The translations under genes were made by a program, and so were the position numbers. Below, piece after piece: positions 1 through 58,430 of a stretch of DNA of 64,000 nt. The DNA comes from an uncultured Actinomycetes bacterium (GTDB lineage: Bacteria > Actinomycetota > Acidimicrobiia > IMCC26256 > DASPTH01): the NCBI GenBank assembly GCA_963705625.1, contig CAVPKG010000004.1, positions 613,018-677,017 of the forward strand, written 5' to 3'. The notes below the pieces were generated by a model. The model did no database searches. It had not been told where the DNA came from and was given only the letters and a program-made list of their open reading frames with translations. How positions within the stretch are numbered: the stretch's first letter is position 1; the number at the start of each line of letters is the position of its first letter.

Positions 1-1150
1 CGTCGTCGACGATCCGGATCTCGACCCACGGTTCGACGTGCCCGACCGGGACGGGTCCATCGTCCAGCTCGTCGTCGCTCGCCACTGCCCACACGGTGGC
101 GGGCGCACTCTCTGTTGCCCCCAGGCGGTTCTCGAACACGACGCGTGGACCGAAGAGCGGTCGCGCCCGTTGCACGTCGTGCGCGTAGAGCGTCTCGCCG
201 ATGAGCGTGACGAGCCGCACGCTGCTCATGCGCGCGTCGGGCGCGGCGGCGACCAGTGAGCGCAGCACGGATGGCACGAGCGGAAGAACGGTGATCTGCT
301 GCGCAGTGACCCACGCCGCGAAGTCGCGCAGACCCACACTTCGAAGGTCGACGCACGCGGTCGCGGCACTGAAGAACGCTCCGAGTGAGCGAATGTACGC
401 GCCACTGAACCCGAATGATCCCGTGACCGCCACTCGATCGTCGGTGGTGATGCGGTTGGAGTAGGCCATCACCAGGCTCCGCCGAACGAGTCCGTCATGG
501 TCTCGCATGACTCCCTTCGGAGTGCCGGTGGAGCCGGACGTGAAGAGCACGATGGCGAGGCTCGCGGGGTCGATCGTTCGGTCGCAGGGGCGGTCGGTCG
601 ACGAATCGGCGGCGCGTGCGACGTCGTCGAGCACAACGAGCGGAGTCTCACCGGCGATCGTCTTCGCGGCGAGACCGGTGGAACTGCAGCTCACCACCAG
701 CGACGCCTGCGCCTCTCGATGTACGACCGCGAGCCGCTCGACCGGATCTTGTGCGTCGAGCGGCACCGCGACGCGGCCCGCCGTCATCACGCCCAGGACG
801 GAGACGATGCCGTCGATGCCGCGGTCGACCACTACCGAGACCTGCGGCTTCCCTGACCGGTCGTGGGCCTCGACAACGCGCGCGACCGAGTTCGTCGCTT
901 GCAGGAGCTGCATGTACGTCAGTTGGCGTTCGCCGTCGTCGATCGCCACCCGGTCGGGAACTGCGGCCGCGATCTCGCGCAACGCATCGTGAACCGACCG
1001 GACGCGAGGCTCTCGGAGGACGCTGGTTCGCAGCCACGGCCTGCCCTCGACGTCGGGCAAGCGAACCTGCGCCGGCGCCTCGCCTTCCGTTCGCACGCGA
1101 GCAACGGTACCGAGCGAGTGCTCGGCGCGCACAGGGCGCTCGAGACTCAC
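1..1150 (-). CDS. AMP-dependent synthetase/ligase, NRPS-like adenylation-domain protein (5' part; the 3' end lies beyond the window start)
   Basis: Absent from the ORF track because no stop falls inside the window. My own minus-strand translation from GTG at 1150 stays open to position 1. It reads ...VPDRVAIDDGERQLTYMQLL...LAIVLFTSGSTGTPKGVMRD...VTGSFGFSGAY...GETLYAHDV. It is alignable by eye at DNA level with 18.2-19.3 kb. Its GTG overlaps the TGA of the upstream hydrolase (GTGA). Confidence 0.8.
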   Translation of the reverse strand, partial: MSLERPVRAEHSLGTVARVRTEGEAPAQVRLPDVEGRPWLRTSVLREPRVRSVHDALREIAAAVPDRVAIDDGERQLTYMQLLQATNSVARVVEAHDRSGKPQVSVVVDRGIDGIVSVLGVMTAGRVAVPLDAQDPVERLAVVHREAQASLVVSCSSTGLAAKTIAGETPLVVLDDVARAADSSTDRPCDRTIDPASLAIVLFTSGSTGTPKGVMRDHDGLVRRSLVMAYSNRITTDDRVAVTGSFGFSGAYIRSLGAFFSAATACVDLRSVGLRDFAAWVTAQQITVLPLVPSVLRSLVAAAPDARMSSVRLVTLIGETLYAHDVQRARPLFGPRVVFENRLGATESAPATVWAVASDDELDDGPVPVGHVEPWVEIRIVDD

Positions 1151-2074
1151 CCCGAGCAGGCGAGCCGGGTGCAGAGGAACTGGCTGACCCGCGCCAGCAG
1201 GTCGTCGTGGACTTCCGGCTCACCGGCCAGGTTGTGCCCGGCTCCTTCGTAGTAGTGCGCCTCCACATCGTGTCCCTTGGCGCGTAGTGCGGCTTCGAGA
1301 TCTTGTGCCTGTCCCACCAGCGCCGCACCGTCGCCGGTCCCGTGCAGTATCAACGCAGGCGGGCTCCAGGTGCCCAGCCGATCGACGACGTTCACCGCGC
1401 CATCGGGCACGGTGAACCCCGCGCTGTTCCACCCCACATACTTGCCAGAGACGAGCACAACAGGCTCCGGGCGCGCCGCGTTCGCTGCGGAGCGCCGCAA
1501 TACCTGCGCCGCGGCTGCAACCCATCACCGCCAACTGCGTCGACGGGCCCAGCGCGCGATAGGCGGCCTCCACGAGCGAGTCGAGATCGGTCACCACGGA
1601 GTCCGCCGCTCCGTCGAACGATGGCGCGGTCGCGCAGGGGATCCTGCCACTCTGCGGATCCAGGGCGTCGGGGGGCGTGAAGAGACAGCCCACGGCGACG
1701 TCGAATCCGCGCGTGGCGAGCTCGTCGGCGAAGGTGAGGTAGTCGAGGTTGAAACCACCCGAGGAGTCGTCGAGCAGTACCGCCGGATGTCGTCCGGTTT
1801 GCAGGCTTCGTCTGACGGCCAGCAACAACTGCGTTCCGGCTCCTGCAGGGTGGACGTACCACCGGTATGCCTCGTTGGCGACATTGTCGGGACGTGGGAT
1901 CTCCCTGATCGGGGGCAACGTCACCGGCACCGTCGTGGCGGGCGCGGTCGTGACCGTTTGCTCGGTCGAGCTCGGGGGCGATGCCGCGCGAGTGCCGGCG
2001 CCTCCACACGCCGTGGCCATGGCGACGAGCGCGACCCCGAGCGCGAGACCGAAGCGGTGACGCAGGAATGGCAC
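1147..2074 (-). pseudogene. Secreted/lipoprotein alpha/beta hydrolase (dienelactone hydrolase / prolyl oligopeptidase-like), one frame change near 1490
   Basis: Joins ORF fragments 1220..2215 and 1147..1500. The N-terminus VPFLRHRFGLALGVALVAMATACGG has a lipobox-like signal (GTG at 2074). The nucleophile elbow is MGCSRGAG and the C-terminus has LHGTGD...GAGH. Confidence 0.7.
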
Positions 2075-2280
2075 GGGTCGAGTATCACGCCCCTGCCCTC
2101 GATGCGACGAGTCGGAACGCAACCCGCGCAGCGATGCAACTGGACACTCCCGAGACCGTTGCAGTGCCGAGCTGCGCCACTCCCCGTAGGTCGCCCAGGC
2201 TTCGGCTGACCACATGCACGGCTCGGTCGGATGTCGTTGGCCACGACGAGCGTCGCTTGGTTTACTGACGATGTCCGGAC

Positions 2281-3192
2281 ATGCCCGGCGAGGGGAGTGC
2301 TGTGGGTAGGCGCACCGACTCTGGGAAGGGCTCCGTGCGCTCGCCGAGTGACGACGCCGAGCCGAGGATCACCGTCGATCCGTCGAACAGACCCGCGTAC
2401 GACGAAGCGCTGCGCGACTTCTACCACCCTCACTATCACGACGAGAAGGCGACGCCTGCTCGCCGAGCCGCCGAACGAGTCCTGCCGATCGTGTTCTCCG
2501 TCATTGATGTGAGATCGATCGTCGACGTGGGTTGCGGCCCCGGCAGCTGGCTCGCGGTGGCACGCCACATGGGTGTTCGAACCTTGACCGGCGTCGAGGG
2601 CGAGTGGGCCCTCGACTGGTTCGGACCGGATCGCGCCGCCCCTGGCGACTTCGACCTCGTCCTCGCGAATCTCGAAGACGACCTATGTCTTCCCCGAACC
2701 TTCGACCTCGCGATCTGCATCGAGGTGATCGAGCACCTCAGCCCGGCCCGGGGAACGTCGTTTGTCGCCGACCTGTGTCGTTGTGCTCCGCACGTGCTGT
2801 TCGGTGCGGCGATCCCCGGTCAGCGAGGTCCCAACCACTTCAACACTCGATGGCTCTCGCATTGGGCCGCGTGTTTCGCCGCTCACGGGTACCAACCGCT
2901 GGACGTCATACGGCATCGCGTGTGGGGAGACGACGAGCTGCTGGTGCACTACCGACAGAATCCCATCCTGTTCGTGCGCGACGACGCCTACGAAGCCGCG
3001 GTCAGGCGGGCGCTCGCGCTGCCTCCGCCACCGCTGGCAGCGCTCGATCAAGTCCATCCGTGGCTCTACACGCTGCGATCGAACGAGTCGCGCGCCGCGG
3101 CGGCCCCCGGCCTCGGGCACCGCATCCGGCTCGCCGCGGGCATCCCGGGCGCGGCACTACGGCGACTGTGGGGGCCCGGTTCGCGACCCTGA
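2281..3192 (+). CDS. Class I SAM-dependent methyltransferase
   Basis: Intact 303-aa ORF. The SAM-binding motif I is IVDVGCGPGSW, followed by DLAICIEVIEHL. The true start may lie downstream of 2281. Confidence 0.75.
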   Translation: MPGEGSAVGRRTDSGKGSVRSPSDDAEPRITVDPSNRPAYDEALRDFYHPHYHDEKATPARRAAERVLPIVFSVIDVRSIVDVGCGPGSWLAVARHMGVRTLTGVEGEWALDWFGPDRAAPGDFDLVLANLEDDLCLPRTFDLAICIEVIEHLSPARGTSFVADLCRCAPHVLFGAAIPGQRGPNHFNTRWLSHWAACFAAHGYQPLDVIRHRVWGDDELLVHYRQNPILFVRDDAYEAAVRRALALPPPPLAALDQVHPWLYTLRSNESRAAAAPGLGHRIRLAAGIPGAALRRLWGPGSRP

Positions 3193-3248
3193 CCCACGGG
3201 AACAACGCCGTTCAGGAAGTGGCGATCCAGGTCCGGCAGCCGCCCGAC

Positions 3249-5036
3249 TCAGGACAACGGGACGTCGCCGCCACCGTTCGCCTTCGCGATGAAGCCGTCG
3301 GGGTTCGATGTGCCGGCCTGCCCGGGTCCGCCCTGACTCGGGCAACCCGTGCAGTCACCGACGTACTTCGGTGCCGGTGTCGGCCGCGTGTCGAACTCGT
3401 CGACCGACGTCTTCTTGTCGAACCAGCCGAACTGCTTCTTCGGAACGGTGCTGCTCTTGTATCGCTTCGCCCCGTCGGCGTACCACGCCACGCCCTTGCC
3501 GTCGCTGCCGGTGCCCTGCGACGGTCCCGAGGTGTCCGGATCCCACCACACTGGTGCGAAGTCGAGCCCCGATGTGAGGTACTCGTCGTAGGGCAGGCCG
3601 GCCGTCCTTCCGTATCCGCTCAAGCTGCCCGTCGGGTAGCCCTGGGCCGCTCCACCCGACGCCGGGATCGAGAAGAGACCTTGTCGGAAGGTCTTCGGTG
3701 TGAGACCGGGACCGGCGGCCTGGATTCCCGTGAGGAGCCAGGTGAGATGCCCCGGCGTCGCGCTGGCGGATGTTCCGACGGTCTCGCCCCAGTACCAGTT
3801 GAGCGGATTCGTCAACACGGTCAACGACTTCTGCGGCGGCGCCGGCGTCGGATCCGGCAACACCCACGGCGACACGCTCGACAACCCGAACGTGTGCGCG
3901 GACTGCTCGACCGGATAGGCGCGGGCGAGGAGCGCGAGATCGTGATACACGGTGCCGGTGAAGAACCACTCCGGGTACCACTCCTGCCGGGTGGCGTTGT
4001 CCATGAGCGCCTTCGTCATGGCGACATCCGTGAAGAGGATCACGGTGGTGACGCCGGCCTCCTTCATCTTCGTTGCGATGACAGGTGCCTGCTCCTCGGC
4101 GGACGTGGCGTCGCCGCGCGGCGACCCGTTGGCCGTGTAAGGAGACTCGCTCGCAAGCGTTGCGCCGTACTTCTTCAAGTCACTCGTGAGTTGCGCGATG
4201 TCGATGACGCCGTCCATGTACACGGTTCCGAACCTGCGGGTCTGCTGTTGGATATCGGTACTGCCGGCAAACTCTGCCAACTTGTGGGTGAGTTGCTTGC
4301 CGACGACCACGGACGCGTTGACCGCCGCTGCTTGCGCGTCGGTCAACCCCCACCGGTAGGGCGCCTGCGCGAGCGCCTTCTTCGCCGTCGTCGCGTAGCC
4401 GAATACCAGGATCTTGGCCTTCGCCATCTCCGAATCGAGGACGTCGAGGCCGGCTGGGACGAAGTTGATCACGGCGAAGGGCTGTTCCGCCTTGATCGCC
4501 ACCGCGTCCGCGCGTTGCGCGGCCTCGTCGTTGCCGGTCGATACCAGGAACCTCATCTCGATGTCGCGGCCCCATGTCTCGTAGTACTTCATCAGCGGAA
4601 GGAGGTAGTCGTGCACCGCATCCTGGTACGTTCCGCGCGTATTGCCCGCTCGGTTGGTTGGCGCAGTGCCGCCGGGGCTGTTGATCTGCTCGTCGTTCGG
4701 CACGACCGCGAAGACCTTGATGGTGTTCTTGGTGACACCGGGGGCAGTGGCGCCTCCGTTGTTCGCGCCGGCCTTCCACGGCTTCACGCAGACTGCACCG
4801 CCACCCACGACCGTCGAGTTGAAGCGGCCGTAGACGCCGTAGCTCGGGTCGCTGTGCGCGCACTTCGGGTTGTTGAGCGCCGCCGCGGTGCCGATCCCCG
4901 ATCCCGGCGTGGGCTTCGCGGCTCCAGGCGGCAGGTCGACCGCTGCCGCCGCCGGCAGCACCGCGGCTCCGCACAGGGCGACGATCGCTGCGGCCGAAAC
5001 GACGAGACGCGACGCGAGACCTCTCCGATGACTCAT
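3249..5036 (-). CDS. Secreted periplasmic-binding-protein-type solute-binding protein (ABC substrate-binding-like, type I PBP fold), no transporter partners nearby
   Basis: ORF 3249..5075, with the start placed at the internal MSHRRGLASRLVVSAAAIVALCGAAVLPAAAA signal peptide (ATG 5036). The body has alternating beta-alpha segments (IKVFAVVP, ILVFGYA, VTTVILFTD) as in Leu/Ile/Val-binding-type proteins. Family assignment is by resemblance only. Confidence 0.5.
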   Translation of the reverse strand: MSHRRGLASRLVVSAAAIVALCGAAVLPAAAAVDLPPGAAKPTPGSGIGTAAALNNPKCAHSDPSYGVYGRFNSTVVGGGAVCVKPWKAGANNGGATAPGVTKNTIKVFAVVPNDEQINSPGGTAPTNRAGNTRGTYQDAVHDYLLPLMKYYETWGRDIEMRFLVSTGNDEAAQRADAVAIKAEQPFAVINFVPAGLDVLDSEMAKAKILVFGYATTAKKALAQAPYRWGLTDAQAAAVNASVVVGKQLTHKLAEFAGSTDIQQQTRRFGTVYMDGVIDIAQLTSDLKKYGATLASESPYTANGSPRGDATSAEEQAPVIATKMKEAGVTTVILFTDVAMTKALMDNATRQEWYPEWFFTGTVYHDLALLARAYPVEQSAHTFGLSSVSPWVLPDPTPAPPQKSLTVLTNPLNWYWGETVGTSASATPGHLTWLLTGIQAAGPGLTPKTFRQGLFSIPASGGAAQGYPTGSLSGYGRTAGLPYDEYLTSGLDFAPVWWDPDTSGPSQGTGSDGKGVAWYADGAKRYKSSTVPKKQFGWFDKKTSVDEFDTRPTPAPKYVGDCTGCPSQGGPGQAGTSNPDGFIAKANGGGDVPLS

Positions 5037-5127
5037 CAGCGAGTCTTCCCCCGATGGACGCCTGTGCGTGCACACTATTGTCGGAGTGCGAGGGGTTCAG
5101 CGCACGGAGCGAACCGGGGGAGTCACC

Positions 5128-6354
5128 ATGGCGAAGCTCGCAGACGACCGGTACATCGTCATCTCGTCGGACTGTCACGCCGGCGCACCGATGCTCGAGT
5201 ACCGCGACTACCTCGAGGTGAAGTGGCACGACGAGTTCGACGCGTGGGCCGCGGCGTACGAGAACCCGTTCGACGACCTGCGCAGTGCCGAGGCGTATCG
5301 CAACTGGGACTCGGCGCGTCGGCAGCAGGAGCTCGAAGGCGACGGGGTCGTCGCCGAAGTGCTGTTCCCGAACACCGTCCCGCCGTTCTTCCCCACGGGC
5401 CTCTTGGCGACGCACCAGCCCACCACGCGCGACGACTACGACCACCGGTTCGCCGGGATCCAGGCACACAACCGGTGGCTCGCCGACTTTTGTGCGGAAA
5501 CGCCCGGACGTCGCGCCGGGATCGCGCAGATCTTCCTCTACGACGTCGACGATGCGGTCGAGGAGGTCAAGCGAGCGCGGGAGGCGAACCTCTTCGGTGG
5601 CGTCCTGCTCCCAGGCGTGGCCCCCGACTCCGGTCTTCCACCCCTCTACGTGCCGGACTACGAGCCGATCTGGGCGGTGTGCGAAGACCTCGGCATGCCG
5701 ATCAACAATCACGCGGGACAGGCCGCACCCGACTTCGGCAGGTACAAGGCATCGACCGCGGTATTCATCATCGAGCTCAGCTGGTTCTCGCACCGCGTGT
5801 TCTGGCACCTGCTGTTCGGCAACGTGTTCTCCCGCCACCCGAACCTGAAGCTCGCGCTCACCGAGCAATCCTCGGGCTGGGTACCGAGCGTCCTCGCCAT
5901 GCTCGACTCGCAGTACAACCGGTTCCAGACACCCGGCACCGCCGAGTTCCGGATCGCCGGGGCACTCGCGGCAGAGATGGGCATCTCGCCCAGTGAGACC
6001 TGGGCGTGTAACTGCTTCCTGGGTTCGAGCTTCCTCCGGCCGAGCGAATGTGAGCTGCGCTACGACATCGGTGTCGAGAAGATCATGTGGGGCCAGGACT
6101 ACCCGCACACCGAGGGCACCTACCCGTACACGCGCGAGGCGCTGCGCAACACGTTCGAAGGCGTTCCCACCGACGAGATCGCGGCAATGCTCGGCGGGAA
6201 CGCGGCCGAGGTGTACGGATTCGATCTCGACGCGCTCGCAGCCGTAGCCGCGCGCGTCGGCCCCACGGTCGACGAGATCGCGGTTCCCCTCGACGAGATT
6301 CCGGCCGACGCCTACTCCGTGGCGTTCACCGGCGAACAAGCCAAGCCCTGGTAG
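5128..6354 (+). CDS. Amidohydrolase-2 family metal-dependent hydrolase/decarboxylase (ACMSD-like)
   Basis: Intact ORF. The start is placed at MAKLADDRYIVISSDCHAG (ATG 5128). Motifs are SDCH near the N-terminus and WGQDYPHTEG near the C-terminus. It is a paralogue of 7162..8486. Confidence 0.8.
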   Translation: MAKLADDRYIVISSDCHAGAPMLEYRDYLEVKWHDEFDAWAAAYENPFDDLRSAEAYRNWDSARRQQELEGDGVVAEVLFPNTVPPFFPTGLLATHQPTTRDDYDHRFAGIQAHNRWLADFCAETPGRRAGIAQIFLYDVDDAVEEVKRAREANLFGGVLLPGVAPDSGLPPLYVPDYEPIWAVCEDLGMPINNHAGQAAPDFGRYKASTAVFIIELSWFSHRVFWHLLFGNVFSRHPNLKLALTEQSSGWVPSVLAMLDSQYNRFQTPGTAEFRIAGALAAEMGISPSETWACNCFLGSSFLRPSECELRYDIGVEKIMWGQDYPHTEGTYPYTREALRNTFEGVPTDEIAAMLGGNAAEVYGFDLDALAAVAARVGPTVDEIAVPLDEIPADAYSVAFTGEQAKPW

Positions 6355-6361
6355 CCCGCCT

Positions 6362-7108
6362 CTACCGGTACTGCACGGTGACGTGCTTCGCGTACTCCTT
6401 GGCGTCGATCTCGACGTCCTCGAGCACGTGGTAGTAGTCGGTCGAGATCATCATGAGGCGGGCCCCCTCCTGCTGGAGGACGGGCAGGTCCGCGACCGGC
6501 GTGCCCGGGAGATCGCGCAGCACGAGCTTGCCTTCGACCTTCTCGCACGACTCCGGCTTCACGGTCTGGTGCAGCGTGATGAGGAACGGTCCGGCGTCGA
6601 AGCCCTCACCCGACACCGCGGGCAGGAACTTGTACCAGAACTGCACCACCTCGTACGGCTCTGGCGTCGGGAGCTTCTCGGTGACGTCGCCGACGACCTC
6701 GATGATGGTGACGCCCTGGCGCGTGACGCTGGCACGGATGTGGTCGCCTTGGCGCTCGCATTCCATCTGCGCCAACTTCTTCGGCTCGCCGTAGGTCTCG
6801 CGGCTCGGCGTGACCGCGGTCTCGAGGTCGATCGGCATCACTGCGCAGAACTGGCCGAGCTGGTCACCGTACATCGCGTCGAGCAGGAACGAGCAGACGA
6901 TCTCGTGCAGCTTCCCGTTGATCTCGATTCGGGTGAAGTGCACGCGGACGCGGGGCTCGGGCGGCGCGGTGAGCGGCGGCGGCAGCACCGCCGCGTGGAT
7001 CTCGGGGTCGGTGAGGTACGTGACCTCGAGCCTCGCGTTCGCCGGGAAGGGCACGACGGACGCGCCTTCGCCCCGGCGGGGCTCCTGGATCCAACGGTTC
7101 TCGGCCAT
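6362..7108 (-). CDS. Acetoacetate decarboxylase (ADC)-family protein
   Basis: This is the 248-aa C-terminal part of ORF 6362..8341, starting at MAENRW (ATG 7108). The LTDPEIHAAVLPPPL and GEPKKLA segments and the size are typical of the ADC-like beta-cone family. Confidence 0.6.
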   Translation of the reverse strand: MAENRWIQEPRRGEGASVVPFPANARLEVTYLTDPEIHAAVLPPPLTAPPEPRVRVHFTRIEINGKLHEIVCSFLLDAMYGDQLGQFCAVMPIDLETAVTPSRETYGEPKKLAQMECERQGDHIRASVTRQGVTIIEVVGDVTEKLPTPEPYEVVQFWYKFLPAVSGEGFDAGPFLITLHQTVKPESCEKVEGKLVLRDLPGTPVADLPVLQQEGARLMMISTDYYHVLEDVEIDAKEYAKHVTVQYR

Positions 7109-7161
7109 GAACACTCCCTGTTTGTCGGTACGAATGAGGTGCGCTGCTACTTGCCGAACGC

Positions 7162-8486
7162 CTACTTGTCGGTGAGGAGGGCGCCCGCCTCCTCGCCCGT
7201 GAGCCATGGGCGGCCGACCTTCTTGTACGGCTCCCACTTGGCGAACACCGACTCGTCGGTCTGCCCGAGGTCTTCGGGGGTGGGGCCGATCCGGTCGGCG
7301 ATGGGCTGGAGCTTCTCGAGGTCGAAGCCGTAGAAGTCGACCTGGTTGAGCCCGAGGATCTGCTCGGTCTCGTCGACGGGAATGTCCCAGAACCGGTTCT
7401 TCAGGAACTCCCGTGTGTACGGCCACGTGCCTTCGGGGTGGGGGAAGTCGTTGCCCCACATGATGTTGCCGACGCCGATCTCGTAGCGGCGCCCGAGCTC
7501 GCGGCGGCGGACGTTCGACGAGCCGATCTTGACGTTGCGGTCGAAGTACTCGCTCGGCAACATCGTGAGCGATCCCGCGCGTGTTGACCATCTTGCGCAT
7601 GCCGTGCTCGCGCGTCGCCATCATGTCGACCCGCCACAGCAGGTCGGCGGCCCAGTAGCTCCCCGCTTCGGTGACCGCCATCTTCAGCGTGGGGAAGCGC
7701 TCGAACACACCGGTGAGCAACATGAACCACAGCGGACGCGCGGTGAAGAAGATCGTCTCGTACCCGTAGACGCTCATCCAGCCGCTCACGTCGCCGTAGT
7801 CCTCGTGCGCGGCGGGACCCGAGTGGCAGTGCACCGGCAGCTGCAGCTCCTCGCACACCGCCCACACCGGGTCGTAGCGGTAGCTCGTGTACGACTCGTG
7901 ACCACCCCATCGCGGCGGGATGATGATGCCGCCGGTGAGGCCCTCTCCGTGCGCGCGGCGGATCTCGGCGATCGCACCGTCGAGGTCGTCGAGGATCGGC
8001 GCGACGATCAGGCCGGCGCGGCGCTCGGGGCTGTCCTGACACAAGCTCGGCCGCCCAGCGGTTGTACGCGCGTGCGCCCGCGAGCAGATGCTCCGGATCT
8101 GTCGTCGCGATCGGGTTGAAGCCGGCGCCGAAGGGTGCGCCCATCGTGCCGGTGGCAGCGTCAGGACCCGGAAACACCACTTCGCCGGCGACGGCGTCGT
8201 TGTCGAGCTCCTGGTCGCGGGTCGCCGCATCCCACCCGCCGCGGAGGCCGATCTCGTGGAGGCTGTTGCCCTCTTCGTCCTCGCCGAACCACTCTTCCTT
8301 GAACTCGTCGTCGCCGATGAAGTTCCCGGCGCCGCCGGCACCGGCGCGCCGCTCGTCGATGATCCGTTGCCGCTCGGCGAGCTCCTCGTCGAAGTCGTCG
8401 AGGTACTGCGGGTCGAGGTAGTCGCGGTACACGGGGGAGTTCGGTCCCGCGTGGCAGTCGGCCGAGATGACGACGTAGTGCTTCAA
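7162..8486 (-). pseudogene. Amidohydrolase-2 family hydrolase, two frame changes (near 8045 and 7570)
   Basis: Joins fragments 7401..8534 (KHYVVISADCHAG...), the middle of 6362..8341 (...GGIIIPPRWGGHESY...VHCHSGPAAHED...) and 7162..7563 (...MWGNDFPHPEGTWPYTREFL). The start is proposed at TTG 8486, preceded by a G-rich patch. Confidence 0.75.
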
Positions 8487-8563
8487 CGGCGTACCCCCTG
8501 GGATTGCTCGGACGACATGGCCAGCTTGCCACAATTGACGAGGCGTCGCAGGCGCGCGCCATC

Positions 8564-9028: not shown

Positions 9029-9031
9029 CCA

Positions 9032-19327: not shown

Positions 19328-19359
19328 GGTACAGCGGCGGCCGGAGTAAGTTCGCCGCG

Positions 19360-34855: not shown

Positions 34856-35013
34856 GCTGACGCTCCCGGAACCGTGACGTTGTCCATGTCTTGGCCGACC
34901 GTAGCAAGGTGTGCGCGAGATCGCCGGTGTGCGAGCTGGATCGCTTGCTGGTCTGACCAACGAGCCGTACGCTCCGAAACGTGCAACCACAGCGACGCGG
35001 CGGGAGGATCGCG

Positions 35014-38142: not shown

Positions 38143-39490
<1,348 letters not shown>

Positions 39491-39500
39491 ACTCGACCGC

Positions 39501-43929: not shown

Positions 43930-45007
<1,078 letters not shown>

Positions 45008-46500: not shown

Positions 46501-48478
46501 GTGAGGCAGGAAGTCGACACGAGGGCCCGCCTCGTGGTCATCGGGCTGGTGGTCGTTGCCCTCTTCGCGGGCTTGCTCACCCGGCTCTGGTTCCTGCAGG
46601 TCGCAGGCGGGGAGAACCTTGCGGTCGCCGCGCAGGCCAACGGCGACAAGCTCGTGCGAGGTTCCGGCGCTCCGCGGCCGCATCCTCGACGCGAAAGGGC
46701 GCGTCCTCGCGGAGACCCGCGCGGTCACCACGCTGGTGGTCGACCGGCAGCAGCTCACGTATGGGACGAGGGGGCAGCTCGTACCGAACCTCGCGCGTGT
46801 TCTGGGTATCTCGACGGACGAGGTCGACAAGCGTCTCGACGACCCGAACAACGAATCGTTCGAGGAGGTCACTGTCGCCGAGGCCGTGAGTGATGATCAG
46901 GCGCAGTATGTGTGGGAGCACCGCGACGACTTCCCCGAGACTCGCGTCACGTCGAGTTTCATGCGCGTCTACCCGCAGGGCTCGCTCGCGGCGCACGTGG
47001 TCGGCTACACGGGCCGGATCAACGCCGAGGAGTACCGGGCGAGGAAGGCGAAGGGCTACACCGCCGACGACACGATCGGGAAGACCGGTATCGAGCAGAC
47101 CTTCGAGTCCGAGCTGCGGGGCACGCCGGAGCTCAAGAAGGTGCGCGTCGACAACCGAGGGCTCAAGGTCGGCGAATCCGTCGTCCGCAAGGCCGAGCCC
47201 GGCCACGACGTGCAGCTCTCGATCGACATCGACGCCCAGAAGGTCGCCGAGGACTCGCTCGCAGCAGGGCATGGAGGGCGCGCGTCGTCTCGTGAGCCCC
47301 GAAGGCGGCTACTACCAGGCCACGGGCGGCGCGGTGGTCGTGCTCGACGCGCGCACGGGCGCGGTCGTGGCGCTGGCATCCGCCCCGACCTTCGACCCGA
47401 ACGTCATCGTCACGGGCGGACTTCCCCCGGAGTATCTCGACCCGAACGGGTCGCTCCCGTTGATCGACCGAGCGCTCAGCGCGTACGCGCCCGGGTCGAC
47501 GTTCAAGCTCTTCTCCGGCATGGCCACGCTGAAGTACGGCATCCGGGCCGCGGACGACACGTACTACGACGACGGCTGTGTCACGTTCGGGAACGAGGAG
47601 AAGCGCTGCAACGCGCGGAAGACCAAGTACGGCTACGTCAACCTGCCCGCGCGCGCTCACCGTCTCGAGCGACGTGTTCTTCTACAACGTGGGCAAGCAG
47701 TTCTGGAACGTCTACACGGACGACGAGGGCGGCGACAGTTCGCCCAACCACCCGCGTCGGCTACGGGATCCAGGAGGTCGCGCGGGCCTTCGGCTTCGGT
47801 GCGCCGACCGGGATCAGTCTCGGCGGGGACCAGTCGGGCCGGATCCCGGATCTCGCGTTCAACCAGGCGCTCAACAAGAACAGCGACGACCCGACGTCGA
47901 AGACCTGGCGCCAGGGCGACAGCGCGAGCCTCGCCGTCGGCCAGGGCGACGTGCTCGTCACACCGCTGCAGCTCGCCGACGGCTACGCCGCGTTCGCCAA
48001 CGGCGGCACGTTCCACAGCCCGCAGCTGGTCGCGGGCGTCCACGCCAGCACCGCCGGACAACCCGAGGGTCAGGTCGGGAAGCTGCTCGCGCCTCGTCGA
48101 TGCACGCCGCCCCGCACGACACCGGCCTCACCCCCGAGGTCCGCGACCCGGTGCTCGCGGGCATCGACGGCGTGGTGAACGACCAGTCGGGCACCGCGTT
48201 CTTCTCGTTCAACACCTACGACGGCGTGCACGTCGCCGGCAAGACCGGCACCGCGCAGGCGGGGAAGAAGCAGGACACGTCGTGGTTCGCGGGCATCATG
48301 AACCCGGCGAACGACCCGGCGCAGCCGCAGTACGTCGTGGTCGCGATGGTCGAGCAGGGCGGGTTCGGCGCCGACGTGGCCGCGCCGATCGTGCGCCGGG
48401 TGATGGACTTCCTCAACGGCAACCCCGATCCCGCGCCGGTGCACTGCGGCGCCCGCGCCGGTCAAGAAGAGCGACTGA
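46501..48478 (+). pseudogene. mrdA: Penicillin-binding protein 2 (elongasome transpeptidase); about 5 or more frame changes
   Basis: An N-terminal TM segment LVVIGLVVVALFAGLLTRLWFLQV, then SxxK in PGSTFKLF and KTGTAQ. The fragments are 46375.., 46556.., 46890.. and 47578... The reconstructed end is ...APAPVKKSD-TGA at 48476-48478. Confidence 0.8.
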
Positions 48479-49637
48479 TGTCGATGATCCGCCCCGAGAT
48501 CGGCGGCACGCGGCGGAGCCGCGACGACTCGCCTCGACATCGCTCCAGTGCGCCACTTCGACTTCTTGCTCGTCGGCGCAGTGCTCGCGATCAGCGGCAT
48601 CGGTCTCGTGATGATCTGGTCGACCACGCACCACCGCGTTCCCGGCGACGAGCTCTACTTCGTCAAGCGCCAGGCGCTGTTCGTCGGGCTCGGCATCGTG
48701 GCGATGTTCGCGGTGATCGCGATCGACTACCGGCGACTGCGCGACCACTCGATGTTCGCCTACTTCGCGACGGTCGCCCTGCTGCTCGCGGTGCTCGCGC
48801 CGCTCGGCTCGAACATCAAGGGCCACCAGGCGTGGTTCCAGCTCCCCGGTGGCTTCACGCTCCAACCGTCGGAGTTCGCCAAGTTCGGGATCATCGTGGC
48901 GCTCGCCGGCTACTGCAACCAGTACCGCGGCGAGCTCGACGCGTGGCGCCTGGCCACGATCCTCGCACTCGTATCGGTGCCGATCGGGCTCGTGTTCCTC
49001 CAGCCCGACCTCGGCACGGTGCTCGTGCTCGTGGTGATCATCGTCGGGCCTGCTCACGGTGGCGGGCATCACCGGACGTCAGCTCCTCGTGCTGGCGCTG
49101 CTCGCGATCACCGGCGTGTACGCGGTCGCCGGCCTCGGCGTCCTGAAGCAGTACCAGATCGACCGGTTCACGTCGTTCGTCGACCCGGGAAGCGCGAACT
49201 CGCAGGGCAACGCCTACAACCAGGAGCAGTCGAAGCAGGCCATCGCGCACGGCCGCTTCACCGGCGAAGGTCTCGGCTCGGGCTCGCAGACCCAGGGCGG
49301 CTTCGTGCCCGAGCAGCACACCGACTTCATCTTCACGTCGGTGGGGGAGGAGCTCGGCTTCGTCGGAGCGGTCGTCCTGCTCGGGCTGTTCGCGATCGTG
49401 ATGTGGCGTACCTGGCGAACCGCCCGGCTCTCCCGCGACTTCTTCGGCACGCTCGTGTGCGTGGGCGTGCTGTCGATGCTCGCGTTCCAGGTGTTCGAGA
49501 ACGTGGGGATGACGATGGGCATCATGCCGATCACCGGCATCCCGCTGCCGTTCGTGAGCTACGGCGGGTCGTCGCTCATCACGAGCTTCGCCTGCGTCGG
49601 ACTCGTCGTCAACGTCTCCATGCGGCGATTCACTTGA
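48478..49637 (+). pseudogene. rodA: Peptidoglycan glycosyltransferase RodA (FtsW/RodA/SpoVE family); two frame changes (near 48525 and 49050)
   Basis: MSMIRPEIGG.., then HFDFLLVGAVLAISGIGLVMIWS, then fragment 49059..49637 (EQHTDFIFTSVGEELGF, PLPFVSYGGSS). Confidence 0.8.
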
Positions 49638-50546: not shown

Positions 50547-50573
50547 CGCGGCAACTGGTAAGGTGGCTTCCAG

Positions 50574-52614
50574 ATGTCAAACCTGTGGCCACGGGTGGAG
50601 CCCCTCCTGGCCAGGGTCGAGAAGCCCGCTCGCTACATCGGGATGGAGCGGGGGAGCGTCCAGCCGGAACATCGGCCGCACCACACTGCCTGGCTCCTCG
50701 TCTATCCCGACACCTACGAGATCGGCCTGCCCAACCAGGGGCTCCAGATCCTCTACGAGATCCTCAACGAACGCGACGACGCGGTCGCCGAACGCGCCTA
50801 CGCGCCCTGGATCGACATGACCGAGGAGATGCGGAGCGGCGTCCGTTCCGCTCTTCTCCGTCGACACCCACCACGACGCCGGCGACGTTCGACGTCGTGG
50901 CGTTCGGGCTCGCGGCCGAGCTCGTGTACACGAACGTGCTCGAGTGCCTCGACCTCGCCGGGGTTCCGGTCCGCGCCGAGGATCGCCGCCCGGAGCATCC
51001 GATCGTCCTCGCCGGCGGGCACTGCGCGTACAACCCGGAGCCCATGGCCGACTTCGTCGACGCGTTCGTCATCGGCGACGGCGAAGAGGCCGTCGGCGAG
51101 ATCACCGAGGTCGTCCGGGAGTGGAAGCGCGCGGGGCGCACCACGCGGGAGGGTGTGCTCCGCGAGCTCGCGACGATCCCCGGCGTGTACGTCCCGGCGA
51201 TGTACGACGTCGACTACGACGGCGAGCTCATTCGTGCGATCCGTCCCCGCTTCCCCGACGTGCCCGAGCGAGTCGACAAGCGCACCGTCGCCGATCTCGC
51301 CGAGTGGCCGTACCCGAAGCAGCAGCTCGTGCCGTTGATCGAGGTCGTGCACGACCGGCTGAACGTCGAGGTGTTCCGCGGCTGCACCGCGCGGCTGCCG
51401 CTTCTGCCAGGCCGGAATGATCACACGTCCGGTGCGTGAGCGACCGGCGGAGCAGGTCCGCACGATGGTGCGTGACGGCCTTCGCCGTACCGGTTACGAC
51501 GAAGTCGCGCTCACGTCTCTGTCCACCGCCGACTTCTCGGGCATCGACGGGTTGGTCGCCGGGCTCGTGAACGAGCAGGAGGGTTGCGGCAACGTCAGCC
51601 TCTCGCTGCCGTCGCTGCGGGTCGACGCGTTCACCGTCGGGATCGCCAGCGAGATCCAGAAGGTTCGCCGCACCGGCCTCACGTTCGCGCCCGAAGGCGG
51701 CACGTGGCGGATCCGCCAGGTGATCAACAAGCTCATCACCGACGACGATCTGTACGCCGCGGTCGACGGCGCGTTCTCGCAGGGCTGGCAGCGGGTGAAG
51801 CTCTACTTCCTCACCGGCGTCCCCACCGAGATCGACGACGACACGCTCGGCATCGCGGAACTCGCCGCGCGAGGTCGTCGCCATCGGCCGGAAGTACACG
51901 AAGAAGGCCAGCTGCACTGCGTCGGTCGGCGGGTTCGTGCCCAAGCCGCACACGCCGTTCCAGTGGTTCGGCCAGAACTCCGTCGCCGAGCTGCAACGCA
52001 AGGTGAATCTGCTACGCGACTCGCTCCGGCGGTCGGGCGCGCAGATCCGGTGGCACGACCCCGCGGCCACGTTCGCCGAGGGCATCGCGAGCCGCGGCGA
52101 CCGACGGATCGGGCGCGTGATCGAGCGCGTGTGGCGGGCGGGCGGCACGTTCCAGGAGTGGAGCGAACGCTTCGACCTCGACCGCTGGCTCGACGCCATG
52201 GCAGCCGAGGGCCTCGATCCCGACTGGTACGTCACCCGGCACCGCACCCGCGACGAGATCCTGCCGTGGGACCACATCGCCGCCGGCCTGCACCGCGACT
52301 TCCTGTGGGACGACTGGCAGGCCGCCCTGCACGAGCACGGGCTCCCCGACTGCCGGTGGACACCGTGCTACGACTGCGGGGTGTGCACCGAATACGCCCT
52401 CGAGCACGTGGTCGCCTCGGCGGTGCCACCGGCCGGGGGCAGCCAGGGCACCGGCCAGGGCCTTGATCTCGATCACGGCGCGACGACCGGAGCGACCGGA
52501 GGGAACGCCGGGGGCTCGCCGGAGCAACGAGCGTCAGCGGCCGGGGTATCCCCGGCTGCAGCGAGTGCGACCACGAATGTGGTCGCCGTGCCGGTCACGA
52601 TCGGGGGCTCCTGA
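50574..52614 (+). pseudogene. B12-binding-domain radical SAM protein (TIGR03960-like); about 4 frame changes
   Basis: VEKPARYIGMERGS. The cluster motif RGCT-RGCRFCQAG is restored by removing the extra base near 51389. Then SLPSLRVD and VKLYFLTGVPTE. The fragments are 50574.., 50585.., 51417.. and 51937..52614. Confidence 0.8.
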
Positions 52615-53357: not shown

Positions 53358-53369
53358 GAGAAGGATTCG

Positions 53370-55293
53370 ATGTCCGACGACACCATGCCGGAGGCCCGAG
53401 CGGCTTCCAGCCCCCTGGACAGCGCCGAGCGCGTCCTCTGCCGATGGCGTGCCCGGTGAGCGACGCGCCCGAAGGCGACGACCTGGCGCCTCGCCCACGT
53501 CGCCGGCGTGGCTCGCGCGGCGGACGCAACCGTCGCAAGAAGCCTGCGGCCGTAACCACCGGCTCCGAAGAGTCCGGCCTCGACGCGTCCGACGAGTACG
53601 TCCCGCACGACTACACCGACGCCGCGGCCGATCGCGGCCTCACCACCGACGACGTCGCCGACGTGGCGCGGGAGGAGGCCGGGCTCCCCGCGCCGCCGCT
53701 CGTGCCCCCGGCCGCGGCCGAGGATCGGCGATACCCGCCCGGCCCCGGTTGCGGCCACCGACGGGAACGGCGCCACCGGCGCTCCGGAGAAGAAACGCCG
53801 CCGTCGGCGCGGGGGCCGCGGACGAGGTCGCGGGACGGCCGGAACCGGCGGCGCAACCACCGGCGGGAACGGGGGTGTCCCCGGGGCCATCGGAGCCGCG
53901 GCGCCGGTCGACGACGTCATCCGCGCCGATCTCGGGATGGGGGACGCGCCCGCGCTCGATCTCGACGACGACGTCCTCGAGCGCCGCCGCGGCCGCACCC
54001 GCAAGGGGCGCCCGTCGGGCCGCTACCTCATGTGCGTGCACGTGCTCGAAGGTGGGCACACCCACATCGCGGTCCTCGAGGGCCGGAACCTCGTCGAGCA
54101 CACCCTCGCGACGCCGACGGGCAACGAGTCGATCGACGGCAACATCTACCTCGGCCGCGTCCAGAACGTGCTCCCCGGCATGGAAGCCGCGTTCGTCGAC
54201 ATCGGCACGCCGAAGAACGGCGTGCTGTACCGCGGCGACGTCGCGTTCGACGCCAGCGACGTGGAGGGTGGTGGCAGGCCGAAGATCGAGCGGATGCTCA
54301 AGAACGGACAGTCGGTCGTCGTGCAGGTCACGAAGAACCCGATCGCGCACAAGGGCGCGCGCCTCACGCAGGAGGTGAGCCTCGCCGGTCGCTTCCTCGT
54401 GATGGTGCCGGGTGAGCCCGAGACCTACGGGATCTCGAAGCGCCTACCCGACGACGAGCGCAAGCGACTCCGCCGGATCCTCGATCGGCTGCGTCCTGCC
54501 GACGCGGGGCTGATCGTGCGCACCGCGGCCGAGGGCGCGACCCGCGACGAGCTCGAACGCGACGTGCAGCGGCTGCGCAACCAGTGGGAGCAGATCTCCG
54601 CGCTCGCGGCGAAGTCGAAGCCGGCCAAGCTCCTCTACCAGGAGCCCGATCTCGTCGCTGCGGCTGATCCGCGAGGAGTTCACGAAGGAGTACCGCGGGA
54701 TCGTCATCGACGACCGCGCCCTCTACGAGGAGACGCGCTCGTACGTCGAGGCGATCGCGCCCGAGCTCGCCGATCGCGTCGAGTTCTACGACGTCGAGGA
54801 GGAGGCGCTCCCGATCTTCGAGCGGTTCCACATCTCCGAGCAGCTCATGAAGGCGCTCGACCGGAAGGTGTGGCTGCCGTCGGGTGGCTCGCTCGTGATC
54901 GAGCGCACCGAGGCGCTCACCGTGATCGACGTGAACACGGGCAAGAACGTCGGCCGCACGAACCTCGAGGAGACGGTGTTCCGCAACAACCTCGAGGCGG
55001 CCGAGGAGGTCGCCCGCCAGCTCCGGCTGCGCGACATCGGCGGGATCATCGTCATCGACTTCATCGACATGGAGATCCGGAACAACCGCGACGAGGTGAT
55101 GCGCGTGTTCCGCGACGCGCTCGGGCGCGACAAGACCCGCACCCAGGCCTTCGACATGTCGGAGCTGGGCCTCGTCGAGATGACGCGCAAGCGGATCTCG
55201 GAGGGGCTCGTCGAGTCGTTCAGCGAGACCTGCCCCACCTGCCACGGCCGGGGCTTCCTGCTCGACGAGTCGCTGCTCCGGTCGATGGACTAG
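53370..55293 (+). pseudogene. rne: Ribonuclease E/G family endoribonuclease with Arg/acid-rich N-terminal extension; about 4 or more frame changes
   Basis: The S1 domain is [23 protein letters not shown]. The catalytic region is [11 protein letters not shown] and IIVIDFIDM. The Zn-link is CPTCHGRG. The fragments include 53276.., 53937.. and 54847..55293. Confidence 0.8.
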
Positions 55294-55335
55294 AGTTCGG
55301 ACCTTCCTGGCACGTTCTGAGGGGTTTCCCGCGCC

Positions 55336-56009: not shown

Positions 56010-56090
56010 CGACGCAGCGGCGCAGCCCGGCGCCCTCGGGCCCACCGGATCTCCCCGCCCCCCGTCGTCGCCGCTCCGTATCCTTCAACT

Positions 56091-57339
56091 GTGCCGGGCA
56101 ACTTCGTCGACGAGGTCCAGGTGAACGTACGCGGCGGCGATGGCGGTGCCGGCGTGGTCTCGTTCCGCCGCGAAGCGCACACGCCCAAGGGCGGTCCCGA
56201 CGGTGGCGACGGCGGCTCGGGAGGCGACGTCTTCTTCGTCGCCGACCGCAACGTGGCGTCGCTGCTCGCGTTCCGCGACCATCCCCACCGGCGTGCGCCG
56301 TCGGGCAAGCACGGCGCCGGGAAGCAGCGCCACGGTGCAACGGGCGACGACCTCGTCGTGGCGATGCCCGAAGGCACCATCGTGCGGGACCGCGAGGGCG
56401 AGCTGCTCGCCGACCTCGTGCACCACGGCGACCGCTTCCTTGCCGCGCACGGCGGCCGGGGCGGGCGCGGCAACGCGCGCTTCCTGTCGAACGCGCGGCG
56501 CGCGCCGGGCTTCGCGGAGCAGGGGGAGTACGGCGAGGAGCGCTGGCTGCGACTCGAGGTGAAGCTGCTCGCCGACGCCGCGCTCGTCGGGTTCCCCAAC
56601 GCCGGGAAGTCCACGCTGATCTCGGCGGTGAGCGCGGCGAAGCCGAAGATCGCCGACTACCCGTTCACCACGCTCGAGCCGCACCTCGGCGTCGTGCGCT
56701 TCCAAGACCACGAGTTCGTGCTCGCCGACATCCCCGGGCTCATCGAGGGTGCGGCCGATGGGCGCGGGCTCGGACACACCTTCCTCCGCCACGTCGAGCG
56801 CGCTCGCGTGCTCGTGCTGCTGCTCGACCTCGCGAGCGTGGACGGCCGCTCACCGGAGGAACAGGAGCGCGTCCTGCTCGACGAGCTCGGGCGGTACCGC
56901 CCGGAGTTGCTCGACGCGTCCCCGCCTCGTCGTCGGGAGCAAGGCCGACGTCGCGACGTCGGAGCTGCACGACCCTGACGCGCTGACGTTGTCGGCCGTC
57001 ACCCGAAGCGGGCTCGACGCGTTTCTCGGACGCCTCGGCACGCTCGTCGACGAAGCGCGCGCCGCCGAACCCGAAACGGAGCCGTTCGTGGTGCTGCGGC
57101 CGGCGGAGGAGGGGTTCACGGTGCGCCGTGACGACGACGGCGCGTGGCGTGTGTCGGGCCGCAGCGCGGAGCGCGTCGTCGCGATGGCCGACCTCACGAA
57201 CGAGGAGGCGATCGACTACGTGCAGGTCCGGCTGCGCCGCATGGGCGTCGAGCGCGCCCTCGCGCGTGCGGGTGCGCATGAAGGCGATGTCGTACGCGTC
57301 GGACCAGTGGAGCTCGAGTACACGGAGAGCATCACCTGA
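56091..57339 (+). pseudogene. obg: GTPase Obg/CgtA; one frame change near 56915
   Basis: FVDEVQVNVRGGDGGAG (glycine-rich Obg fold), GFPNAGKSTL and DIPGLIEGA. The C-terminal fragment is 56749..57339. Confidence 0.9.
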
Positions 57340-58430
57340 TGCCGATGACCGCCGTCGTCAAGATCGGCACGTCGTCGATTACCTCGGACACCGGTGAGCT
57401 CGATGATCCCGCGCTGCTGAAGCTTTGTCGCGAGGTCGCCACCGCGCGTGGCCGCGGTCACGAGGTCGTGCTCGTCTGCTCGGGCGCGATCGCGGCGGGG
57501 CTTCCGGCGCTCGGTTTCCGGACGCGTCCGGCCGACATCGGCCTGCTGCAGGCAATCGCCGCCGTCGGACAACCGCGCCTGATGGAGCGCATCGGCGCGA
57601 TCTTCGGGCAGCACGATCTACTCGCCGGGCAGGTGCTGCTCACTCCGCACGACTTCGGCGTGCGATCGCAGTATCTCCATCGCGCGAGACGCTACGACGG
57701 CTGCTCGACCTCGGTGTCGTTCCGATCGTCAACGAGAACGACACCGTCGCCGACGACGAGATCCGCTACGGCGACAACGACCGGCTCGCCGCGCTCGGTG
57801 TCCCATCTCGTGCAGGCCGACGTGCTCGTGTTGCTCACCGACACGCCGGGGCTCTTCACCGCCGACCCGCGTCTGGACGAAGGCGCGTCGCTGATCGAGG
57901 AGATCGTCGAGGTCGACGCGGCGCTGGAGGCGGTTGCCGGCGGGACGGGCACCGCGCGCGGGAGCGGTGGGATGGCGAGCAAGCTCGCCGCGGCCAAGAT
58001 CGCCGCGTGGTCCGGTGTGCGCGCCGTGATCGCAGGAGCCGACGTGCCCGACGTCGTCGTCGACGCGATCGAAGGCCGCGCGGTCGGCACGGCCGTCCGC
58101 CCGAAGCCGGAGCGACTCGCGAGCCGCAAGTTGTGGATCGCGTTCGCGCGCGACGCGGCCGGGCGCATCGTCGTGGACGACGGCGCGCGGCGCGCCCTGT
58201 GCGCGGACAACCGGTCGCTCCTGCCCGCCGGCGTCCGCGAGGTGGAGGGCGCGTTCGATGCCGACGACGCGGTCGAGATCGTGGGTGCCGACGGCACGCC
58301 GTTCGCGAAGGGCCTCGTGCGGTACTCGGCGGCGTCGCTGCGGGCGGTCGCCGGACGCCGAACCGGCGAGCTGCACGAGGGACTTCCACACGAGGTCGTG
58401 CACCGTGACGACCTCGTCGTTCTGCCCTGA
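57339..58430 (+). CDS. proB: Glutamate 5-kinase; the ORF is open end to end but about 39 internal codons are out of frame
   Basis: [10 protein letters not shown] and [10 protein letters not shown]. Between about 57680 and 57797 the conserved [38 protein letters not shown] is readable only in the frame of ORF 57425..58408. The C-terminal PUA domain is in frame. Confidence 0.85.

Follow-up and report, generated by a model that had tools for sequence, protein, structure and literature searches.

Frame-shifting indels in 25 genes of an Acidimicrobiia-like metagenome contig are very probably consensus errors of the assembly

The window, that is, the whole 64-kb stretch of DNA that was analysed, has 25 genes broken by frame-shifting indels, and all methods combined give a count of at least 95. 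These frame disruptions are very probably consensus errors of the deposited assembly and not mutations in the organism. The genes beneath the lesions are intact in every evolutionary respect, with normal purifying selection on the corrected frames.

Detection of frame-shifting indels

By frameshift-aware protein-to-DNA alignment, the window was compared with intact orthologous proteins of two related contigs, L163 (JGI Ga0673053_0000130) and L161 (GCA_040880805.1). Between 33.9 and 58.4 kb, 53 frame-shifting events were observed with these references, and the total rose to 58 once P0057, the closest ValS homologue, was used as the valS reference. All 26 reference proteins aligned over essentially their entire length, and 14 of them showed frame-shifting events. 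The fragments in adjacent frames, when concatenated, form full-length colinear matches to the intact orthologues. The sequence-only reading had listed about 25 genes readable only by hopping between frames and had proposed such an alignment as a check. The alignment confirmed the events and showed the fragments to be parts of single genes; 25 genes were counted, and with at least 95 events the extent of disruption is larger than had been described. The window has about 54 genes in all.

From 1 to 34 kb, the left part of the window, a codon-usage Viterbi tracker was used to follow the frames. Where both methods were comparable, the tracker recovered 35 of the 53 orthologue-pinned events (about 66%); it made two false calls, both at gene boundaries. 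The tracker, junction-spanning Pfam domains, paralogue-guided alignment and direct frame reading together yielded at least 37 further events in this part, where Pfam domains bridge predicted junctions. The features of the left part are as follows.

1147-2215, minus strand: dienelactone-hydrolase-like gene; direct frame reading shows a single +1 switch near 1470-1510, with the C-terminal part (ORF 1147-1500) in the frame next to that of the N-terminal part.
1511-7571: event-free stretch with a methyltransferase, a substrate-binding protein, an amidohydrolase and an ADC-family gene; no frame switches by the tracker (chance of zero events at the mean rate about 1e-3). A public collection includes exact copies of the proteins from 3252-5036 and 5128-6351; the second of them falls in a cluster (90% identity or more) with relatives of 408 aa.
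7167-8483, minus strand: amidohydrolase; two frameshifts (about 7572 and 8040) by the Viterbi tracker, with Amidohydro_2 across both junctions; the orthologue is intact (445-446 aa) in related contigs.
9583-11751, minus strand: adenylate-cyclase/ATPase regulator; at least three frameshifts (about 10545, 10663, 11354), the last bridged by Guanylate_cyc.
11843-14400, plus strand: FtsX/MacB-type permease; at least five frameshifts (about 12258, 12575, 12889, 13241, 13468) by the tracker; the MacB_PCD and FtsX domains each bridge a junction.
14474-15999, plus strand: PMT_2 glycosyltransferase-like membrane protein; one frame switch (about 15533) by the tracker. This is the weakest case, with no Pfam domain across its junction.
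16676-19330, minus strand: NRPS-like gene with adenylation, PCP and thioesterase domains; at least seven frameshifts (18118, 18375, 18620, 18819, 18896, 19080, 19114), three junctions lying within the AMP-binding domain; paralogue-guided frameshift-aware alignment gives six events in 18228-19330.
20148-20884, minus strand: SDR; one +1 shift at 20665-20670 by blastx and Pfam; blastx HSPs 20314-20664 and 20666-20869 are in adjacent frames, and adh_short_C2 (residues 11-244) runs across the junction.
23148-26115, plus strand: hybrid histidine kinase; at least seven frameshifts (23938, 24464, 24900, 25033, 25234, 25438, 25880) by the tracker, with junctions bridged by PAS_4 and Response_reg domains.
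26136-27068, plus strand: response regulator-GGDEF; at least four frameshifts (26288, 26374, 26466, about 26620) by the tracker, two of the junctions inside Response_reg residues 1-108; the GGDEF match is without the first 43 profile positions.
27125-29305, minus strand: S8 subtilase with Big_7 domains; at least four events (about 27915, 28560 deletion-type, 28690, 28815) by frame reading and Pfam; the HGTHVAG, VVNMSLG and AAAGNDG segments are in three different frames.
31038-32110, plus strand: thiolase-like gene; two frameshifts (31617, 31736) by the tracker; the orthologue is intact (392 aa) in related contigs.

The right part (33.9-58.4 kb), together with the event-free end of the window, contains the following.

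33940-34861, minus strand: SDR (307-aa orthologue); one inserted base at 34033/34034 by orthologue alignment.
36048-37471, plus strand: tig; a single base deleted at about 36646, by orthologue alignment; the truncated 256-aa product is already among the called proteins of the deposited assembly.
37471-38105, plus strand: clpP; two insertions (37832-37837, 37984-37988).
38143-39384, plus strand: clpX; three insertions (38332-38338, 39061/2, 39311-39316); 93% identical to the orthologue after correction.
39501-42069, plus strand: valS; 19-22 frame-shifting indels, the densest patch; HIGH-like and KMSKS motifs intact after correction.
42081-43393, plus strand: folC; seven events (five one-base insertions, a one-base deletion and a two-base deletion).
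43969-45004, plus strand: mreB; one inserted base at 44261-44264, and an in-frame TAG at 44633-44635 that is TGG in relatives.
45071-45879, plus strand: mreC; two insertions (45285, 45817).
46501-48475, plus strand: PBP2/mrdA; six insertions (46658, 47263/4, 47645-49, 47757/8, about 48093, 48444-49).
48475-49634, plus strand: rodA; two insertions (48525, 49045-50).
50574-52488, plus strand: radical SAM gene; four insertions (50837, 50887, 51387-89 within CxxxCxxC, 51865-67).
53370-55290, plus strand: rne (RNase E/G); two firm insertions (G at 53422, C/G at 54656/7) and two uncertain events in the low-complexity N-terminal region.
56091-57336, plus strand: obg; one inserted C at 56915 by nucleotide alignment to L161 (90% identity) and orthologue alignment.
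57348-58427, plus strand: proB; one deletion (57681) and one insertion (57796-98), which together leave the ORF open but shift about 117 nt, with the NENDTV motif, out of frame.
57801-64000: event-free stretch with the end of proB, proA, moxR, VWA, a 214-aa gene and nadD; no frameshift events at 93-97% protein identity, coding-sequence indels relative to L161 only of length 3n (chance of zero events at the mean rate about 4e-4).

Lesions that had been placed individually from the letters were found again. The extra C proposed at 39525/6 in valS is at 39523-39526, the extra A at 44263 in mreB is included in the interval 44261-44264, the base near 51389 in the radical SAM motif is at 51387-51389, and the SDR lesion near 20667 maps to 20665-20670. 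The deletions near 36644 in tig and near 28556 in the protease correspond to a deletion at about 36646 and a deletion-type shift at about 28560. Three successive +1 shifts had been deduced in clpX, and three are observed. The first had been assigned to a T at 38338: there is indeed an extra base within 38332-38338, but its identity is ambiguous, because removal of a C and removal of the T both restore the frame. Dropping C from CCCG (38332-38335) gives K-P-R-E-I-Y, the exact sequence of the L163 orthologue, and dropping the T gives K-P-A-E-I-Y.

Type, context and distribution of the lesions

The 58 orthologue-pinned events comprise 44 one-base insertions, four two-base insertions, six one-base deletions and four two-base deletions, in agreement with the earlier impression that the lesion is usually a lone inserted base. 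One-base insertions make up about four fifths of the events, and insertions are in excess by about 4:1. In the left part, 23 of the 31 tracker junctions are +1 shifts.

No association with homopolymers was observed at the sites: the longest run averages 1.98 near a site and 2.21 near random positions, and no site coincides with any of the nine runs of six or more bases in the window. The longest run near any site is at most three bases, as expected from the claim that the inserted bases are not in long homopolymers. Homopolymer error of the Nanopore, 454 or Ion type was rejected on these grounds. No shared motif was found at the sites beyond a mild enrichment of CGCCGC-like k-mers, and a search there for slippery or stimulatory motifs found none. 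Most insertions sit in ordinary G+C-rich sequence.

One could suppose that the extra and missing bases are real in the genomic DNA, and that full-length ValS, ClpX, Obg, RNase E and other proteins are produced through pervasive correction by ribosomal +1 frameshifting, transcriptional slippage or site-specific nucleotide-deletion RNA editing. Full purifying selection on the corrected frames, as described below, would be expected in that case too. However, there is no slippery or stimulatory motif, homopolymer tract or shared sequence at the sites, up to 22 of them fall in one gene, insertions, deletions and two-nucleotide events are mixed, relatives at 90% identity do not share the sites, and stretches of 5-6 kb are without any site. 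To our knowledge, such editing has no bacterial precedent, and we find this explanation scarcely credible. Programmed frameshifting and slippage were rejected for the lack of a motif or homopolymer at the sites, the absence of the sites from orthologues, and their number per gene.

The events are clustered. Counted in 2-kb bins, they have an index of dispersion of 3.97 (p about 6e-13); 17 of them fall in the densest bin (40-42 kb), and the event density forms a smooth hump centred on this bin and crossing gene boundaries. The overall rate is about 1.5 indels per kb, roughly Q28, and within a few kb it can range between 0 and about 8 per kb. Clustering had been suggested by two clean stretches, 2281-7108 and 58866-63862; the overdispersion bears this out, and the event-free stretches are 1510-7572 and 57800-64000.

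An artefact with an origin other than low read depth is conceivable here, namely collapsed or mis-mapped reads of co-occurring related strains or species, or short-read polishing of only part of the contig, as a result of which some patches would be corrupted and others clean. The lesions are indeed patchy at the 2-6 kb scale, with clpX, valS and folC in the densest patch, and there are many related Acidimicrobiia contigs in public metagenomes. On the other hand, strain mixing would predict substitutions and chimeric haplotypes besides pure one-base insertions, and rplU, rpmA, ndk and proA are clean despite high conservation. This origin is possible, though in our opinion rather unlikely.

Conservation of the corrected genes

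The corrected ValS retains every one of the 316 columns with at least 98% conservation among 120 homologues, whereas 30 control homologues miss 0-5 such columns each. The dN/dS ratios relative to L161 and L163 are 0.06-0.31 for the frame-corrected genes and 0.03-0.22 for their frame-intact neighbours. In the orthologue alignments, protein identity is uniform on both sides of each lesion. The same 24 kb that contain the 58 orthologue-pinned indels have a single nonsense codon, the TAG in mreB.

The related assembled loci compared (given as four: L161, L163-L166) have 79-90% nucleotide identity to the window. None of the window lesions is present in L161 (90% identity) or L163-L166 (79-86%), and all affected genes are called full length there. 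Among the matches listed, all 120 ValS homologues are full length (844-884 aa). No second assembly of the same species showing the intact sequence was found, the best ValS homologue listed being 82% identical. Exact matches to proteins of the window, the truncated Tig among them, come from a single NCBI/ENA contig, 799,197 bp long. Some window proteins fall into clusters (90% identity or more) that number 22-62 members, from Acidimicrobiia contigs of public metagenomes.

The disruption of 25 of about 54 genes, together with one true nonsense codon in mreB, might be taken as a sign of real pseudogenes, that is, of massive decay of the organism or of this region's copy, as in Mycobacterium leprae or recently host-restricted symbionts. 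However, selection is not relaxed, as ValS keeps every conserved column with about 20 indels and the dN/dS values are near those of intact genes. Indels outnumber nonsense codons 58:1, no lesion is common to relatives, and there are out-and-back indel pairs within about 100 nt, such as that in proB. Essential single-copy genes are the hardest hit (valS with 19-22 lesions; clpX, obg, rne, folC, mreB and rodA too). Pseudogene decay, which we consider very improbable, was rejected since no relaxation of selection was observed and essential single-copy genes are not spared (valS 19-22, folC seven, clpX three).

Probable origin of the errors

As the corrected genes encode fully conserved proteins, the lesions are almost certainly consensus errors. 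Real biology is almost certainly not involved; the lesions probably belong to a familiar class, long-read consensus error, in an insertion-biased, non-homopolymer form. The sequence-only reading had preferred insertion-biased consensus error to decay, and the 4:1 insertion excess, the clustering, the 316 ValS columns, the dN/dS values, the 1:58 proportion of nonsense codons to indels and the lesion-free relatives all support this choice.

A 799-kb contig of an Acidimicrobiia-like metagenome-assembled genome points to long-read assembly. The source would then be a long-read metagenome assembly whose consensus carries spurious indels, mostly single inserted bases. The cause may be read depth that was low or uneven, or polishing that was incomplete or uneven. 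For raw errors of PacBio CLR a profile of 8% insertions and 3% deletions is quoted, and that of Nanopore is roughly balanced; the insertion excess may hint at the former, being closer to it. The G+C-rich context and the insertion bias were matched here to no documented error model.

Comparison with known systems

In pseudogene-rich genomes, such as those of Mycobacterium leprae and recent symbionts of the Sodalis type, essential genes are intact, and the pseudogenes have nonsense codons, deletions and relaxed substitution. The window resembles them in having frameshifts in a large fraction of its genes, but its essential genes are the hardest hit and conservation is perfect.

Programmed frameshifting (prfB, dnaX, IS elements) and the rescue by poly(A) slippage in endosymbionts depend on a single conserved site in each gene, marked by a slippery motif or a long homopolymer that orthologues have in common. 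Here also the frame changes inside a still-functional gene; however, the sites are unconserved and motif-less, and there are up to 22 per gene.

Frameshift-causing indels are documented in long-read assemblies, and in PacBio CLR or Nanopore assemblies and MAGs gene-fragmenting indels have been measured by the IDEEL test and repaired with proovframe or Kastor (PMC9262707; bioRxiv 10.1101/2021.08.23.457338; PMC12007338). Nanopore indels are usually concentrated in homopolymers (PMC9262707), unlike the lesions of the window with their 4:1 insertion excess. In other respects the situation is analogous to that of long-read assembly errors: many one-nucleotide indels occur in an otherwise highly contiguous contig, fragments in adjacent frames join into full-length matches to orthologues with fully conserved proteins, and the lesions are denser in some stretches of the contig than in others, perhaps owing to depth or polishing.

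Detection and number of frame disruptions

The G+C content of the window is 66-73% in 2-kb windows, and at this composition a plain list of ORFs is uninformative (282 ORFs of at least 100 aa). We used three independent approaches: filtered blastx, a codon-usage Viterbi frame tracker, and a frameshift-aware protein-to-DNA dynamic programme. Unfiltered blastx, with every ORF of the related loci as subject, was too noisy, as off-frame ORFs in high-G+C genomes match too; this was remedied by restricting the subject set, the ORFs of 160 related loci, to those with the coding G+C pattern GC3 > GC1 > GC2. The tracker was trained on the filtered matches. The dynamic programme relied on intact orthologues from two related loci, L163 (79-86% nucleotide identity) and L161 (GCA_040880805.1, 90% nucleotide identity). 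Three close JGI relative contigs were compared by gene tables.

In the filtered blastx, a single orthologue matches consecutive pieces in differing frames for tig, clpP, clpX, valS, folC, and mreB, and likewise for mreC, PBP2, rodA, the radical SAM gene, and rne. With the L163 and L161 references, the dynamic programme yields 53 frame-shifting events at 33.9-58.4 kb. When the closest ValS homologues serve as the reference, 19-22 events are found in valS, and the pinned total becomes 58. The tracker recovers 35 of the 53 events (about 66%) to within approximately 20 nt, with two false calls, both at gene boundaries. Twelve aligned genes contain no events: ndk, mreD, nadD, proA, moxR, the SDR, SPW-family, DUF2344 and VWA genes, the genes for L21 and L27, and a gene of 214 aa. 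In the left part of the window (1-34 kb), the tracker, Pfam domains across junctions, alignment guided by an intact paralogue, and direct frame reading (protease and hydrolase) together give another 37 or more events, spread over 11 genes.

In total, 25 genes of the window carry at least 95 events, and about 29 are untouched. The sequence-only reading had counted about 25 disrupted genes and recommended frameshift-aware protein-to-genome alignment with orthologues; the count is the same, the alignment pinned 58 events, and the individual positions proposed there are correct within the ambiguity of the method. The cleanest cases, from direct nucleotide alignment to L161, are those in obg, proB, and rne; a substitution in mreB is listed with them.

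Selected lesions (window positions)
53422: extra G in rne
54656: extra C in rne
56915: extra C in obg
57681: missing base in proB
~57798: extra G in proB
44633-44635: in-frame TAG in mreB (G-to-A substitution); TGG (Trp, ASAWPLEEE) in four relatives, L163-L166

The pair of indels in proB leaves the ORF open and shifts the frame across the NENDTV motif. The mreB TAG is the only nonsense codon seen at 33.9-64 kb; it too is probably an error of the assembly, in this case a substitution.

Gene content and related loci

The closest relatives of the window genes are found in uncultured Acidimicrobiia MAGs. The conserved block has the order tig-clpP-clpX-valS-folC-ndk-mreB-mreC-mreD-PBP2-rodA, followed by the radical SAM gene, DUF2344, rne, rplU, rpmA, obg, proB, and proA. 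Related contigs are colinear with this block, and all block genes are called full length there.

Several local differences were observed. A clpP1-clpP2 pair is common in Actinomycetota; a single clpP (37471-38105 in the window) lies between tig and clpX in the window and in L163-L166. The gap between clpX and valS (39385-39500) is only about 120 nt, where L163-L165 hold three hypothetical genes of 198, 62 and 350 aa (8120-9991 in L163); two of them, of 198 and 350 aa, are shown in L166. Approximately 22 kb (~8500-31000) separate the amidohydrolase-ADC-amidohydrolase genes from the thiolase, OB-fold, GYD and SPW genes; the corresponding interval contains no more than three small genes in two related JGI contigs. 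This block, which contains a regulator, an FtsX permease, PMT_2, an NRPS-like gene, a hybrid kinase, a GGDEF regulator, an S8 protease and others, is likely to be inserted and lineage-specific. Two adenylation-domain paralogues on the minus strand, at 1-1144 and 18228-19330, are 74% identical at the nucleotide level; six frameshifts interrupt the internal copy, and none the one at the window edge. In the S8 protease, a poly-proline linker of 23 residues or more (~27930-28030, minus strand) directly precedes a frame switch into the Big_7 domains, and this repeat may be prone to error itself. Relative to L161, the 435-nt spacer upstream of proA (58431-58865) has many 1-nt indels and another of 19 nt; one of its frames is open, producing a spurious N-terminal extension of proA (ORF 58449-60116).

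Of ten exact window proteins, nine are present in a collection of 15 billion proteins, all from one NCBI/ENA contig of 799,197 bp, so the lesions belong to a deposited assembly, one of whose contigs is very long. Among the nine is a frameshift-truncated Tig fragment of 256 aa, including its out-of-frame tail. No second assembly of the same species was found in the matches listed for GTDB representatives, in metagenomes, or in the protein collection. The best of the listed GTDB matches has 74-75% amino-acid identity (a ValS fragment), and the best metagenome match 75% (Tig). The best ValS match in the protein search was 77% identical to a rough reconstruction and 82% after proper correction.

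Character and distribution of the lesions

The 58 pinned events comprise 44 one-base and 4 two-base insertions, and 6 one-base and 4 two-base deletions. This is an excess of about 4:1, consistent with the insertion bias noted from the sequence alone; in the left part, 23 of the 31 junctions called by the tracker are +1 shifts. Among the 12 insertions whose base is unique, 11 are of G or C, and the composition over all sites is compatible with that of the window. Near the sites, homopolymer runs reach three bases at most (mean longest run 1.98, against 2.21 for random positions), and no event coincides with any of the nine runs of six or more bases in the window. The run lengths near the sites led us to reject homopolymer-driven error.

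No common motif was observed at the sites. A shared motif or slippery site was rejected, the only signal being a mild enrichment of G+C-rich k-mers of the CGCCGC/CCGCGC type. Repeat-induced misassembly was also rejected, the paralogue pair being the sole internal repeat. Across the 64 kb, ARAGORN found no tRNA genes and no Rfam family reached the gathering threshold; involvement of structured RNA or tRNA was not found in the window.

The events are clustered, with an index of dispersion of 3.97 in 2-kb bins (p about 6e-13). They include a hump of 3, 8, 17, 7 and 3 events per bin, centred at 40-42 kb, and are absent from 1510-7572 and 57800-64000. The patchiness that had been described before is therefore confirmed. 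Such variation over a few kb would fit read depth that fluctuates at low coverage, polishing that was uneven, or the collapse of strain variants.

Artefact or biology

This question was judged from evolutionary signatures. The heaviest load of lesions falls on genes that cannot be lost together: valS, obg, rne, folC, and the rod-shape genes. Frame-corrected ValS, compared with 120 homologues, keeps all 316 of the 316 columns conserved at 98% or more, where control homologues miss 0-5. Drift long enough to accumulate about 20 indels would inevitably have replaced some conserved sites. The dN/dS values of the corrected genes (0.06-0.31) overlap those of frame-intact neighbours (0.03-0.22). Nonsense codons are nearly absent, the one in mreB being the exception, and no lesion of the window is shared with the relatives of 79-90% identity. 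True pseudogenisation fails its defining tests on the conserved columns, dN/dS, nonsense codons and essential genes.

Programmed frameshifting or slippage would require sites that are conserved and carry a motif. The observed sites are unconserved and without a motif, insertions are mixed with deletions, and there are up to 22 events per gene; this explanation, too, fails its defining tests. Genuine indels, corrected at the level of RNA or translation, are an extremely improbable reading. Consensus error is the explanation left over and is very probable, as the sequence-only reading had argued in preference to decay; the ValS columns, the dN/dS values, the scarcity of nonsense codons and the private nature of the lesions all support it.

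Consequences and comparison with known artefacts

This result is of value as a data-quality flag, not as biology. Roughly half of the window genes are mis-called in public resources, and for about half of the genes of the contig, gene calls, pseudogene counts, completeness, and metabolic or evolutionary inference are wrong; the mis-calling presumably extends over much of the 799-kb contig. Truncated fragments with garbage tails, such as the 256-aa Tig, are already in a public protein collection. Other findings in the window should be interpreted only after frame correction or re-polishing, and apparent gene fissions, novel C-termini, overlapping ORFs and "pseudogenes" elsewhere in the contig should be distrusted.

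Frameshifting indels are documented for long-read assemblies and MAGs, particularly below about 40x coverage (PMC9262707; 10.1101/2021.08.23.457338; PMC12007338). The raw errors of PacBio CLR are quoted as 8% insertions and 3% deletions (proovframe preprint, 10.1101/2021.08.23.457338); PMC7423617 makes no statement on insertion/deletion ratios per assembler. The 4:1 excess is nearer to the CLR profile, which is only a hint as to the platform. The homopolymer signature usual in Nanopore assemblies is absent from the lesions of the window. Checks for homopolymer errors only would miss assembly errors that are insertion-biased, non-homopolymer and patchy. The lesions are almost certainly not a real biological feature; they very probably belong to the well-known class of gene-fragmenting indels of long-read assemblies, sharing with it the fragmentation of genes and differing in being non-homopolymer and insertion-biased.
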